Positions 587-25,346 of a stretch of DNA of 64,000 bases are shown here, one piece after another. Under the pieces are notes generated by a model, which was not told the DNA's origin, made no database searches, and saw nothing but the letters and a program-made list of their open reading frames with translations. The stretch comes from Escherichia coli (GTDB lineage Bacteria > Pseudomonadota > Gammaproteobacteria > Enterobacterales > Enterobacteriaceae). The position numbers and the translations under genes were made by a program. Within the stretch, counting starts at the first letter, position 1, and every line of letters starts with the position of its first letter. The stretch lies in assembly GCF_002854065.1 (NCBI RefSeq), contig NZ_CP024147.1. The stretch is one strand, 5' to 3'.

Positions 587-3500
587 TTAATAATCTCCAG
601 TAAAGCCTGCACAGGATGGCGTACCCCCGTGCCTTCAACCCGTTTGACCTGACTACGGCAGGAATATCCGGTCGCCAGACAGCGGTTACGCGGCAGTCGC
701 TGCATAGCCTGATGCCAGGATAACTCATAGATCCCGAGCGAATTTTTATGGTTTTTCGCTTCATGTCCGTAAGTCCCTGCCATGCCGCAGCAACCCACGC
801 TGACATTTTCCAGTTTCGCGCCAAAACGGGCAAATATCGCGGCCCATTGTGCTGGCGCACCCGGCAAGGCGGTAACTTCGGTACAGTGACCAAAGAAATA
901 CCATGATTCACCGCTGACTGTAGCCACTGGCTGTGACTCAAGTGCGCTTGCCAGCCATTCATTCGCCAGTAAGACGTTAAACTCGCCACGTTCCTCGCCC
1001 AGTGCCAGTTTATATTCATCGCGATAACAAAGTACCAGCGCCGGATCGACGCCTACCATTGGCATACCCAGCTTCGCCATACGGTTGAGGAAATCCGCCG
1101 TCTTTTTCGCCGTCTTCGCAAAACGATTAAGAAAACCTTTAATATGCTGGGCTTTGCCATTTGGCGAAAATGGCAGTAACACAGGCTGGAAACCTAATTT
1201 TTCGACCAGACGGACAAAATCCGCCACCACTTGCGCATCGTAATAGCTGGTAAAGGGGTCCTGCACCACCAACACCGTGCGCGCTTTCTGCTCTGCATTG
1301 AGAGCTTCAAGCTGTTCCAGCGTCATGTTTGCCGAGCGATGCCCCACCATTTGTTGTTGTAGCGAGGGGACCGACAGCAGCGGCAAATCAACCATGCCGA
1401 TATGTTTTTCCGAGAGTTTGCGCATCAGCGGCTGGTTAATGAAGAAGTTAAAGGTTTTCGGCGCGCGTGCCATCAGCGGTGCGTAGCTCTCGACCGTAGC
1501 GACGAGGTGGTCGCGCAGCGGACGTAAATAACGGGTGTGATAGAGCTGCAGGAAACGAGAGCGAAACTCCGGCACATCAATTTTGATGGGGCACTGGGTC
1601 GAACAAGCTTTACAGGCCAGACAGCCCGACATCGCCTCTTTGACTTCGTGTGAGAAGTCATATTCGCCTTTATTCGCATGCCAGCTATTGCGCGTGCGGG
1701 CAATTAACGTCCGCAAACTGACGCCGGATTCAGGCAGTTCTTGTTCCAGTTTGAGTGGATCAACGCCGCGATCCGCCAACAAACGCAGCCATTCACGCAC
1801 CAGCGTTGCGCGCCCTTTCGGTGAATGAATCCGGTTCTGGGTGATCTTCATCGACGGACACATCGGACTACGGGCATCAAAGTTGAAGCATAAACCGTTG
1901 CCGTTACACTCCATCGCACCGCGCCACTGCTGGCGTACCGCAATGGGGATCTGCCGATCGAATGTACCGCGCTTCACCGCGTCCACTTTCATCATCGGCG
2001 CATCGAGACCTTCTGGCGGGCAAATCTTCCCTGGGTTGAGTCGGTTATGCGGGTCAAATGCCGCTTTCACTTTGCGCAGTTCTGCAAAAAGTTCCTCACC
2101 GAAAAACGCCGGGCTGTATTCAGCGCGAAAACCTTTGCCGTGCTCGCCCCACAACAAACCACCGTATTTCGCAGTCAGCGCCACCACGTCATCAGAAATT
2201 TGCTTCATCAAAATCTCTTGTTGCGGATCGCACATATCCAGTGCCGGACGGACGTGCAACACCCCAGCATCGACATGACCAAACATGCCATAACTTAAGC
2301 CGTGGCTGTCGAGCAGCGCGCGAAATTCAGCAATATAATCGGCCAGATGTTCCGGCGGTACGCAGGTATCCTCAGCAAACGGAATTGGCTTAGCGGCACC
2401 TTTGGCATTGCCAAGCAGACCAACGGCTTTTTTGCGCATTGCATAGATACGTTCAACCCCCGCCAGCTCACGGCACACCTGCCAGCCGATGACACCTGCT
2501 TGATGACTGGCGATCAGCTCATCCAACCGCGCACAGAGTGCATTTACCCGCTCATCAATCAGCGCCTCATCATCACCAGCAAATTCCACAATGTTCAGCC
2601 CGAGCATCTCTTGGTCAGGCACATCGGTAATCAACTCGCTGACGGAATGCCAGACAATATCTTCCCGCGCCAGATTCAGCACTTTTGAGTCCACCGTCTC
2701 TACCGAAAGCGCCCGCGCCTCAACCATAAACGGCGCGTTACGCAGCGCAGAGTCAAAAGAGTCATATTTGACGTTCACCAGACGGCGCACTTTAGGCAAG
2801 CGCGTAATATCCAGCCGCGCTTCGGTAATAAAGGCCAGCGTCCCTTCTGAACCCGTCAGAATGCGCGTCAGGTCGAACTCGGTCATCTCATCGTTAAAGA
2901 CATGACGCAGATCGTAACCGGTAAGAAAGCGGTTAAGTTTGGGGAAGTTGTCGATAATTAACTGGCGTTGCTGACGGCAACGTTGATAAACCGTGTTATA
3001 AATTCGCCCGATTGCGGTATTGGTTTTACCCAGCGTTTCCGCCAGTTCGACGGGTAAAGGTTGCGTATCGAGAATATCGCCCCCCAACAACACCGCGCGT
3101 ACGCCAAGTACGTGATCTGACGTTTTGCCATAGACCAGCGATCCCTGACCGGATGCATCGGTATTGATCATCCCGCCGAGCGTTGCCCGGTTGCTGGTCG
3201 AAAGTTCTGGTGCAAAAAAGTAGCCGAACGGTTTCAGGTACTGATTGAGTTGGTCTTTTATCACCCCGGCCTCAACGCGCACCCAGCCCTCTTCAGGGTT
3301 AATTTCGATGATGCGGTTCATATGGCGGGACATATCAACAATAATCCCCTGGTTGAGCGCCTGACCGTTAGTGCCGGTGCCGCCGCCGCGGGGGGTAAAG
3401 ATCAGCGATGAATAGCGTTCCTGCGCGGCAAGACGGGCGATCAGCGCCACATCTGCGGTTGAACGCGGAAATACCACCGCATCGGGGAGAAGTTGGTAAA

Positions 3501-20475: not shown

Positions 20476-22846
20476 TCAGTTCAGCCAGGCTTAACCAGGT
20501 TTGCACCACGGTGTCCGGATTCAGAGACAGGCTATCGATCCCCTCTTCCATCAACCATGCGGCAAAATCTTCGTGGTCGGACGGACCCTGACCGCAAATC
20601 CCGACATATTTGCCCTGTTTCTTCGCGGCACGAATCGCCATCGACAGCAGTGCTTTCACCGCATCGTTGCGCTCATCGAACAATTCAGACACCACGCCGG
20701 AGTCACGATCCAGACCGAGCGCCAGCTGCGTCATATCGTTTGAGCCAATTGAGAAGCCGTCGAAATATTCGAGGAACTGCTCGGCCAGCAAGGCGTTGGA
20801 CGGGATTTCACACATCATGATGATTTTCAGCCCGTTCTCACCACGCTTCAGCCCCTGACGCGCCAGTTCCTCAACCACCGCTTTCGCCTGATCTACGGTA
20901 CGCACGAACGGGATCATGATCTCAACGTTGGTCAGCCCCATGTCGTTGCGCACACGTTTCACTGCTTCGCACTCCAGCGCGAAACAGTCGCGGAAGCTGT
21001 CGGAAACATAGCGGCCCGCGCCACGGAAGCCGAGCATCGGGTTCTCTTCATCTGGCTCGTAACGCTCACCACCGACCAGGTTGGCATATTCGTTCGATTT
21101 AAAATCAGAGAGCCGGACAATGACGCGCTTCGGATAAAACGCGGCACCCAGCGTCGCGATCCCTTCAGTCAGACGACCAACGTAAAATTCACGCGGAGAA
21201 TCAAAACCTTTCATCATCTCGCGGATTTCGTTTTGCAACTGCGGTTCCTGATCGTCAAACTCAAGCAGTGCGCGTGGGTGGACGCCAATCATACGGTTGA
21301 TGATAAATTCCAGACGCGCAAGTCCCACGCCTTCGTTCGGCAGACAGGCGAAGTCGAAAGCTCGGTCCGGGTTACCGACGTTCATCATCACTTTCAACGG
21401 CAGATCCGGCATCGTTTCTACGCTGGAGCTTTTCACGCTAAATTCCAGCAACTCCGCATAGACGTAACCGGTATCACCTTCGGCACAAGAAACAGTGACG
21501 TTCTCACCGTCTTTCATCCGTTCTGTTGCATCACCACAGCCCACTACCGCCGGAATGCCCAGTTCACGAGCGATGATCGCCGCGTGACAGGTACGACCGC
21601 CACGGTTGGTGACGATGGCAGATGCTTTCTTCATGATCGGTTCCCAGTCCGGGTCGGTCATGTCAGTGACCAGCACGTCACCAGGTTCGATGCGGTTCAT
21701 TTCGCTGATGTCATGGATGACTTTCACCGGACCCGCACCGATGCGATGACCGATAGCACGGCCTTCGGCGATAATCTTACCCTGTGAATGCAGCGTATAA
21801 CGCTCCATGACCTGACCGCGTGAGCGCACGGTTTCCGGACGCGCCTGCACAATGAACAGTTTGCCGGTGTGGCCATCTTTCGCCCACTCAATATCCATCG
21901 GGCGACCGTAGTGTTTCTCAATTTGTACGGCCTGTTTTGCCAGTTCCTGCACTTCTTCGTTGGTCAGCGAGAAGATGTCACGCTGTTCCTGCGGTACGTC
22001 TTCGATTTTAACCTGCTTGCCGTGCTCCTGGGTCGGCGCGTAAACCATGCGGATTTTTTTCGACCCCATGGTGCGGCGCACGATAGCCGGGCGATTCGCC
22101 GCCAGTGTCGGTTTATGCACGTAAAACTCATCCGGGTTAACCGCACCCTGCACGACCATCTCACCAAGGCCCCATGCGGAAGTGATAAACACCACCTGGT
22201 CAAAGCCGGATTCGGTATCAATGGAGAACATCACGCCAGATGATGCGAGGTCAGAGCGCACCATCCGTTGAACACCAGCGGAGAGCGCCACACCACGGTG
22301 ATCGTAACCCTGGTGCACACGATAAGAGATGGCGCGATCGTTAAACAGAGAAGCAAATACATGTTTCACTGCCACGAGAACGGCGTCAAAACCCTGAACG
22401 TTGAGGAAGGTTTCCTGCTGACCGGCAAAAGAAGCGTCCGGCATATCTTCTGCGGTGGCGGAGGAGCGCACCGCAAAAGAGGCGTTTTCGTCATCGGCGG
22501 AAAGCTGTGCATAGGCTTCGCGGATGGCGTTTTCCAGCTCAGGCTGGAAGGGAGTGTCGATAATCCACTGGCGGATTTGCGTGCCCGCTTTCGCAAGCTG
22601 AGTAACATCGTCAATATCCGTTTTATCCAGCAGTTCATAAATGCGCTGGTTTACGCCGCTTTGGTCCAGAAACTGGTTAAACGCGTCGGCGGTTGTGGCG
22701 AAACCATTCGGAACGGAAACACCCATTCCGGAAAGGTTAGTAATCATTTCACCCAGGGAGGCATTTTTGCCCCCAACCCTGTCTACATCATTCATGCCGA
22801 GTTGGTTATACCAAAGCACCAGCGGTGACGAGCCATTGTTGGACAT
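20468..22846 (-). CDS. ppsA: phosphoenolpyruvate synthase
   Basis: 792-aa ORF recognised as PpsA. Confidence 0.95.
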
Positions 22847-22932
22847 CGAACAATCCTTTTGTGATAAATGAACGGTTTGAGAAACACATTTCTGCGCATT
22901 TATCTTTGCATATTTAACCGGATGAAAAAAAC

Positions 22933-22948
22933 GGTGAATCGTTCAAGC
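22933..22948. promoter_or_regulatory. candidate Cra (FruR) operator upstream of ppsA (ggtgaatcgttcaagc)
   Basis: Imperfect palindrome TGAATCGTTCA in ppsA upstream region; Cra activation of ppsA is established. Confidence 0.4.
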
Positions 22949-23178
22949 AAATATATTTTTTTACTTTTTAAGACTGATCCCAGCGTTGCGCAAACCTGCT
23001 CTCTTCGACAATTTCCACATAAACCATCGGTATAAACGAAACCATAAAAATGAAATGCTGTTTTCATAAAAAATAAAATTGAAGGTTCATTTTATAAACC
23101 AGACATAACGTTCTACGCTTCTGTGCGTTTTTAATTTATGCTTTCATAGAATTATGTCTGCATCACGGGAAGAACAAA

Positions 23179-24012
23179 ATGGATAATGCTGTTGATCGCC
23201 ACGTTTTTTATATTTCTGATGGTACGGCAATAACTGCGGAGGTATTAGGACACGCAGTAATGTCACAATTTCCCGTCACTATCAGCAGCATCACGCTGCC
23301 GTTTGTCGAAAATGAGAGCCGTGCACGGGCAGTGAAGGATCAGATTGACGCAATTTATCACCAGACAGGCGTGCGCCCGCTGGTCTTCTACTCCATCGTG
23401 TTGCCGGAGATTCGCGCCATCATCTTGCAAAGTGAAGGTTTTTGCCAGGATATCGTTCAGGCGCTGGTTGCCCCGCTACAACAAGAGATGAAACTGGATC
23501 CAACGCCGATTGCTCATCGTACCCATGGCCTTAACCCTAATAATCTCAATAAATATGATGCGCGCATTGCGGCGATTGATTACACCCTCGCCCACGATGA
23601 CGGCATTTCGTTGCGCAATCTGGACCAGGCTCAGGTGATCCTGCTCGGTGTTTCTCGCTGTGGTAAAACCCCCACCAGTCTGTATCTGGCAATGCAGTTT
23701 GGTATCCGCGCGGCAAACTACCCCTTTATTGCCGACGATATGGATAATCTGGTGCTACCCGCGTCGCTCAAACCGCTTCAGCATAAATTGTTCGGCCTGA
23801 CTATCGACCCGGAACGTCTGGCGGCGATTCGCGAGGAACGTCGGGAGAACAGTCGCTATGCCTCGCTTCGTCAGTGCAGGATGGAAGTCGCGGAAGTGGA
23901 AGCCTTGTACCGTAAAAATCAGATCCCGTGGATTAACAGTACCAATTATTCGGTAGAAGAGATTGCCACCAAGATCCTCGATATCATGGGCCTTAGTCGC
24001 CGAATGTACTAG
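23179..24012 (+). CDS. ppsR: PEP synthase regulatory protein (bifunctional kinase/pyrophosphorylase, DUF299)
   Basis: 277-aa ORF divergent from ppsA. Confidence 0.9.
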
Positions 24013-24023: not shown

Positions 24024-24168
24024 ATTAGCTTATTTTTTTGTTATCATGCTAACCACCCGGCGAGGTGTGACACACCTCGCACTTGAAATCAGCAGCGATT
24101 GGTTTATCGTGATGCGCATCACTTCCCGGCAGTCCTGCCGTAGAAGCAACAAATTTCTGAGACTTGTA

Positions 24169-25215
24169 ATGAACAGAACTGACGAACTCCGTACTGCGCG
24201 TATTGAGAGCCTGGTAACGCCCGCCGAACTCGCGCTACGGTATCCCGTAACGCCTGGAGTCGCCACCCATGTCACCGACTCCCGCCGCAGAATTGAAAAA
24301 ATACTGAATGGTGAAGATAAGCGACTGTTGGTCATTATTGGCCCCTGCTCGATCCACGATCTCACCGCTGCAATGGAGTACGCCACCCGTCTGCAGTCGC
24401 TGCGCAACCAGTACCAGTCACGGCTGGAAATCGTAATGCGCACCTATTTTGAAAAACCACGAACTGTTGTCGGCTGGAAAGGACTAATCTCCGATCCAGA
24501 TTTAAACGGCAGCTATCGGGTAAATCACGGTCTGGAGCTGGCGCGCAAATTACTTTTACAGGTAAATGAGCTGGGCGTCCCAACCGCGACCGAGTTCCTC
24601 GATATGGTGACCGGTCAGTTTATTGCTGATTTAATCAGTTGGGGCGCGATTGGCGCACGTACTACCGAAAGTCAGATCCACCGTGAAATGGCTTCGGCAC
24701 TCTCCTGTCCGGTAGGTTTTAAAAATGGTACCGATGGCAACACGCGGATTGCTGTGGATGCTATCCGCGCAGCCCGCGCCAGCCATATGTTCCTCTCGCC
24801 AGACAAAAATGGTCAGATGACCATCTATCAGACCAGCGGCAACCCGTATGGCCACATTATTATGCGTGGCGGCAAAAAACCGAATTATCATGCCGATGAT
24901 ATCGCCGCAGCCTGCGATACGCTGCACGAGTTTGATTTACCTGAACATCTGGTGGTGGATTTCAGCCACGGTAACTGCCAGAAGCAGCACCGTCGCCAGT
25001 TAGAAGTTTGTGAGGATATTTGTCAGCAAATTCGCAATGGCTCTACGGCGATTGCTGGAATTATGGCGGAAAGTTTCCTGCGCGAAGGAACGCAAAAAAT
25101 CGTCGGCAGTCAGCCGCTCACTTACGGTCAATCCATTACCGACCCGTGTCTGGGCTGGGAAGATACCGAACGCCTGGTCGAAAAACTCGCCTCTGCGGTA
25201 GATACCCGCTTCTGA
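24169..25215 (+). CDS. aroH: DAHP synthase, tryptophan-sensitive isozyme (348 aa)
   Basis: Track ORF 24046..25215 trimmed to ATG 24169 (MNRTDELRT...). Confidence 0.95.
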   Translation: MNRTDELRTARIESLVTPAELALRYPVTPGVATHVTDSRRRIEKILNGEDKRLLVIIGPCSIHDLTAAMEYATRLQSLRNQYQSRLEIVMRTYFEKPRTVVGWKGLISDPDLNGSYRVNHGLELARKLLLQVNELGVPTATEFLDMVTGQFIADLISWGAIGARTTESQIHREMASALSCPVGFKNGTDGNTRIAVDAIRAARASHMFLSPDKNGQMTIYQTSGNPYGHIIMRGGKKPNYHADDIAAACDTLHEFDLPEHLVVDFSHGNCQKQHRRQLEVCEDICQQIRNGSTAIAGIMAESFLREGTQKIVGSQPLTYGQSITDPCLGWEDTERLVEKLASAVDTRF

Positions 25216-25346
25216 ATGCGTGCCCATTCCTGACGGGATGGGCATTTCTGCGCAACTTGTTGTCTTCTCAACACATTACTGCTTGCTCTGGTCAGCCATA
25301 ATATTGATAATAAGAATCATTGTTATATCAATTATTATTAATTTTT

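Follow-up and report, generated by a model that had tools for sequence, protein, structure and literature searches.

The DNA analysed here, hereafter the window, is a 64-kb stretch from an O157:H7-like strain of Escherichia coli. Among its genes are ppsA, on the minus strand, and ppsR, on the plus strand, encoding phosphoenolpyruvate (PEP) synthase and the kinase that inactivates it, respectively; aroH comes next after ppsR. The two genes diverge from a gap at 22847..23178, and the features that we assign to this gap and its borders are collected in Table 1. The ppsA product scores 1317 bits against the NCBIfam model NF005057 and 1290 bits against TIGR01418. A first-pass annotation, made from the sequence, had described this gap as a very AT-rich divergent region of 330 bp, with a Cra-like half-palindrome that would serve in the activation of ppsA. 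The divergent arrangement is as described, but the length is not: the gap measures 332 bp.

The locus is almost universal in the species. A segment of 601 bp around the gap (22700..23300) is 100% identical to that of E. coli O157:H7 TR01; of 5426 complete E. coli genomes, 5423 contain this segment. Compared to K-12 MG1655, the gap shows a single base difference, at 22995, which falls outside every element named in Table 1. To follow the gap beyond E. coli, we scanned one genome per species for PpsR, which returned 80 Enterobacteriaceae loci, and both gene starts could be placed in 78 of them. The alignment used below consists of the 74 distinct gap sequences.

Table 1. Features of the ppsA-ppsR gap and its flanking genes (positions are those of the window)
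Feature	Position	Strand	Basis
ppsA CDS, phosphoenolpyruvate synthase, 792 aa	20468..22846	-	ORF list; NCBIfam; RefSeq annotation of identical DNA
ppsA 5' UTR, 49 nt	22847..22895	-	PMC3415461 map; conservation profile
ppsA transcription start, +1 G	22895	-	K-12 map; G invariant in 74/74 sequences
Putative ppsA extended -10, TGcAAAGAT, -15 to -7	22902..22910	-	Position relative to start site
T7 tract, -36..-30, in the place of a -35 element	22925..22931	-	Sequence; conservation
Cra (FruR) operator GGTGAATCGTTCAAGC	22933..22948		Matrix score; identity to published OppsA; position; conservation
A/T-rich upstream flank of the Cra site, -54 to -80	22949..22975		Sequence; moderate conservation
Conserved A/T block, -105 to -52 from ppsR start	23044..23097		Conservation
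ppsR core promoter block TTTTTAATTTATGCTTTCAT	23128..23147	+	Position relative to mapped starts; conservation
ppsR 5' UTR	23149..23178	+	Weak starts 23149 and 23154, mapped from K-12
ppsR CDS, PEP synthase regulatory kinase/phosphorylase PpsR, 277 aa	23179..24012	+	NF049928, 431 bits

The AT-richness noted in the first-pass annotation was borne out. The gap has a GC content of 33.4%, against 49.2% for the whole window, which places it among the lowest 1.2% of 332-nucleotide windows; only two GC troughs of the 64 kb are deeper. Such a contrast could be taken to mean that the segment was acquired horizontally or is silenced by H-NS, and is not an ordinary promoter region. However, this is a core-genome locus, as its presence in nearly all complete E. 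coli genomes shows, and across the Enterobacteriaceae genera its synteny is kept and its gap length is nearly constant. The drop in GC is moreover restricted to the non-coding gap, as expected for a divergent promoter region. We therefore hold a foreign or silenced origin to be very improbable. An Rfam scan of 22700..23300 returned no RNA family at E <= 1.

The length of the gap is itself a conserved feature, with 327 to 341 bp in 73 of the 78 species, although its central part is poorly conserved. This constancy may reflect a constraint on how the two promoters are spaced or phased. Conservation is lowest in 22976..23043, and 23097..23127 is also poorly conserved. At the other extreme, the best-conserved 16-nucleotide window of the gap (22927..22942) reaches a mean identity of 0.977, against 0.65 gap-wide; it overlaps the promoter-proximal half of the Cra site and the adjoining T tract.

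The start of ppsA transcription can be placed precisely. In K-12 it was mapped to position 1785185 of NC_000913.2, on the minus strand, with a leader of 49 nucleotides (PMC3415461, supplementary file 2). The 51-nucleotide string given in that study, which ends at the start site, matches window positions 22895..22945 exactly, so that +1 is the G at 22895. Downstream, the 27 nucleotides adjoining the ppsA start codon, including an AAGGA ribosome-binding site, are strongly conserved. Upstream, T-15, G-14, A-11 and T-7 are, like G+1, invariant in all 74 sequences, whereas the remaining positions of the -10 element vary. This pattern, together with the position of the TG dinucleotide, suggests that ppsA has an extended -10 promoter. 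In the place of a -35 element lies a run of seven T residues, matching TTGACA at two of six positions. With so poor a -35 element, the promoter should be weak in the absence of an activator. The lack of a -35 match would also explain why a consensus promoter scanner called no minus-strand promoter in the gap. Upstream of the Cra site, the flank at 22949..22975 shows moderate conservation and keeps its A/T-richness from genus to genus; it could possibly offer a contact surface for the RNA polymerase alpha subunit's C-terminal domain (alpha-CTD), or form a bendable segment.

According to PMC9426594, the ppsA 5' UTR contains the small-protein gene pssL; in the K-12 RefSeq annotation, pssL (b4782) lies just upstream of pssA (K-12 locus 2703..2744), and the former placement is thus likely to be a mix-up of gene names. 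An ORF of 27 codons (22806..22889, minus strand) begins 6 nucleotides after the ppsA +1 and overlaps the ppsA start, with its ATG kept in only 10 of the 74 aligned sequences. Finally, pairing of the small RNA ArcZ with the 5' end of ppsA has been suggested by a RIL-seq study, as far as the citation in PMC9426594 conveys it. A crude duplex prediction gave no support to this pairing, whose duplex energy was no better than with shuffled mRNA (83% of shuffles were at least as good).

The candidate Cra site, GGTGAATCGTTCAAGC, is found at exactly 22933..22948 when read on the plus strand. It is an imperfect palindrome with a central CG (22940/22941), as is typical of operators of the LacI/GalR family. 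Its description as a half-palindrome was a fair one: the promoter-proximal half GGTGAATC, at -45..-38 of ppsA, is close to consensus, while the distal half GTTCAAGC is degenerate, with two positions off consensus. Relative to the consensus GCTGAAWCGWTTCAGC, the 16-mer has three mismatches. Searching both strands of the window with this consensus and up to three mismatches produced four matches, for about 1.06 expected, an excess that is suggestive but weak.

A weight matrix was far more discriminating. We derived it from an unseeded expectation-maximization (EM) motif search on the upstream regions of 13 accepted K-12 Cra targets (fruB, pykF, aceB, icd, pck, fbp, epd, edd, pfkA, tpiA, gapA, mtlA and adhE), deliberately leaving out ppsA. 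The search converged on GGTGAATCGATTCAGC, which is the published Cra motif gcTGAAtCGaTTCAgc (PMC5888115). Scored with this matrix, 22933..22948 obtains 16.76 bits and ranks first among the 127,970 16-mers on both strands of the window, within the range of the training sites (13.2 to 22.5 bits). The gap offers no alternative, its runner-up reaching only 2.2 bits, and shuffled versions of the gap attain the observed score in 0.06% of cases (P = 0.0006).

The site was also identical to the one in the literature. Supplementary Table S5 of PMC9948231 gives the ppsA Cra-binding site as 'OppsA ggtgaatcgttcaagc', letter for letter the same as our 16-mer at 22933; in that Cra-biosensor paper, OppsA serves as a working operator in synthetic Cra-controlled promoters. 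Counted from the mapped start, the operator spans -53..-38, with its center (22940.5) at -45.5. This is the very position of the FruR operator of ppsA according to Negre et al. 1998, as quoted in the relevant passage of PMC7897506. Both the start-site and the operator data come from K-12, whereas the window belongs to an O157-like strain; the 16-mer, its -45.5 position and the flanking promoter are nonetheless the same in the two, and nothing substantial sets them apart. The element is therefore an already known operator in its known position, and brings no new biology. In E. coli K-12, the ppsA Cra/FruR operator is reportedly the subject of footprinting papers by Ramseier (1993/1995) and Negre (1998).

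Conservation singles out the same bases. The orthologous site is the top Cra match in each of the 78 gaps, with scores of 15.4 to 19.3 bits and five sequence variants. Neither the TGAATCG core (central CG included) nor the AAGC end changes in any of the 74 sequences, in the midst of neighboring bases that vary. Within the site, variation is confined to the two non-consensus bases of the distal half, which read either TC or GT. The distance from the operator to the TG of the -10 element is nearly fixed too, at 22 nucleotides in 66 of the 74 sequences and 23 in the other 8.

Could the 16-mer nevertheless be AT-rich DNA that happens to resemble the Cra consensus, the real site lying elsewhere in the gap or beyond it? 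Its three mismatches, shared by three other matches in the window, leave some room for this, and so does the second-best matrix match of the window, GTTGAGACGATACAGC (58538..58553, minus strand), which scores nearly as high (16.36 bits) inside the nadE coding sequence, where it is probably fortuitous. Against chance stand the first rank of the site in a gap that otherwise stays at or below 2.2 bits, its identity to the published OppsA operator, a spacing to the mapped start exactly as published, in so far as the passage citing Negre et al. reports it, and a core that remains invariant in 74 distinct Enterobacteriaceae sequences while its neighbors change. Chance resemblance is effectively refuted by these data and its probability is close to nil.

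We are thus left with 22933..22948 as, almost certainly, the operator through which the LacI-family protein Cra (FruR) activates the ppsA promoter, and no part of our analysis contradicts this explanation. The first-pass annotation, which had presented the exact site as its own deduction, proved right on this point: the matrix, the OppsA string, the -45.5 position and the conservation profile all lead to the same 16 bases, and no Cra site was found elsewhere in the region.

The mechanism described in the literature would then apply as follows. At low glycolytic flux, for instance on acetate or pyruvate, Cra should be free of its sugar-phosphate effector, fructose-1-phosphate or, in the classical view, fructose-1,6-bisphosphate. 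Free Cra would bind 22933..22948 and recruit RNA polymerase through alpha-CTD, in the manner of a class I activator. Expression of ppsA would rise, allowing pyruvate to be turned into PEP for gluconeogenesis. During growth on glucose or fructose, Cra would be released by the effector and the ppsA promoter would drop to its basal level. Several published observations concern these steps: sugar phosphates release Cra from DNA (PMC7897506), and a reporter driven by the ppsA promoter showed 16-fold induction on acetate compared with glucose (PMC5555440). The latter study set the wild type against a cra deletion and took, as its Cra-independent control, a ppsA promoter whose Cra site was scrambled.

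How does this operator compare to others? With those of fruB, pykF, aceB, icd, pck, fbp, epd and pfkA, among others, it shares the family motif TGAAWCGWTTCA and the central CG, and its score lies inside their range. Its distal half is distinct, with GTTCAAGC in place of GATTCAGC, and this non-consensus form is itself conserved across genera. Where Cra represses a gene, its operator overlaps the promoter or lies downstream of it. The ppsA site lies upstream of the core promoter, as in other gluconeogenic and TCA-cycle targets of Cra, which is expected for activation. A parallel may also be drawn with class I and class II promoters of CRP, where a dimeric activator likewise sits just upstream of a poor -35 element and recruits polymerase through alpha-CTD, according to the literature, although Cra belongs to the LacI/GalR family rather than to CRP/FNR. 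PMC7897506, in the passage citing Negre 1998, calls FruR a class I activator at ppsA, strengthening the binding of alpha-CTD. The canonical CRP positions are -41.5 (class II) and -61.5 (class I); -45.5 falls between the two and equals neither, so that the 'class I' label follows the wording of the authors in that passage.

Among the flux-sensing switches of E. coli central metabolism, the Cra operator of ppsA is one of the best known, and it has already been put to use in synthetic biosensors of glycolytic flux. Its confirmation here shows that a real operator can be recovered from raw sequence by a first-stage reader. As a by-product of modest value, the conservation of the ppsA promoter was mapped base by base, which supports the extended -10 architecture.

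The divergent layout raises the question of whether one Cra operator also controls the ppsR promoter, thereby serving both the enzyme and its regulator. The functional coupling of the two genes speaks for such an arrangement, as does the narrow range of gap lengths, which suggests an architectural constraint. The distances do not: 208.5 bp separate the center of the site from the downstream ppsR start (23149), far beyond the normal range of an activator or repressor, and the intervening DNA includes the least conserved part of the gap (22976..23043). No Cra control of ppsR was found in the literature examined. We consider it unlikely that the operator is shared, and retain its assignment to ppsA.

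The weak ppsR promoter has features of its own. In K-12, its two starts, at 1785439 and 1785444, were mapped with values of 8 and 7, compared to 420 for ppsA (PMC3415461, supplementary file 2). The -10 element is TATGCT (23137..23142), with an invariant A-11 and nearly invariant T-12 and T-7. Mean identity is 0.944 over 23131..23146, whereas the -35 region is not conserved.

Further upstream, the conserved A/T block comprises a perfect dyad, ATGAAA-N6-TTTCAT (23050..23067), an A-rich run, and the element (T/G)TTCATTTT (23085..23093). The arms of the dyad are largely conserved across genera, Salmonella included, and its six-nucleotide spacer varies freely. For the dyad pattern with up to one mismatch, the expectation is 0.37 matches per 64 kb. 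None of the three regulators tested, CRP, Fur and YpdB, fits. YpdB, a pyruvate-responsive regulator of the LytTR type, deserves a comment: its repeats in the yhjX promoter, GGCATTTCAT-N11-GGCATTTCAT, have the TTTCAT core in common with the dyad block, where one copy, AGCATTTCAT on the E. coli minus strand, resembles a YpdB repeat. However, only TTTCAT is conserved across genera and not the GGCA part, the same-strand copies are 13 nucleotides apart instead of 11, and Salmonella, which has no YpdA/YpdB, conserves the block equally well. We rejected YpdB on these grounds.

A tentative and rather doubtful interpretation is that the dyad, the A-run and the third TTTCAT-like element, in a gap of constant length (about 332 bp), form the site of an unrecognised transcription factor or nucleoid protein, which may set the level of PpsR or act on ppsA from a distance. 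If this were true, the PpsA/PpsR switch, known to date solely at the post-translational level, would gain a transcriptional layer. In any case, the study of how PpsR is itself controlled could be guided by this conserved dyad upstream of ppsR.

Other regulators have been connected with this region. A genomic SELEX study lists ppsA as a target of CRP. In spite of this listing, our search for TGTGA-N6-TCACA revealed nothing above chance in the gap: it contains only two matches, each with three mismatches, and the window as a whole has 219 for 230 expected. One paper states that Fur binds upstream of ppsR. Despite this report, scanning with GATAATGATAATCATTATC left the gap at background level, its best match being 10/19, a score that more than 1,300 positions of the window attain. 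The best Fur box of the window, GATAATAAGAATCATTGTT (25306..25324), matches at 15/19, with an overlapping 14/19 match from 25300. It lies at the ydiE promoter and overlaps the mapped ydiE start (about 25319); this box may be the Fur signal that was ascribed to 'upstream of ppsR'.

PdhR is a different case. The PdhR box AgTTGGTtatACCAAag reported by genomic SELEX (PMC7660256) is present at 22800..22816, outside the gap and inside ppsA. The corresponding palindrome, AGTTGGTTATACCAAAG, covers codons 11-16 at about +88 from the ppsA start, where its conservation is inseparable from that of the protein.

A CRP-like sequence, TGTGACACACCTCGCA, was observed beyond ppsR at 24066..24081, with one mismatch to TGTGA-N6-TCACA. 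It is centered 44.5 nucleotides upstream of the mapped aroH start (24118). The program-made aroH ORF of 389 amino acids begins upstream of this transcription start, and the real start codon is at 24169.
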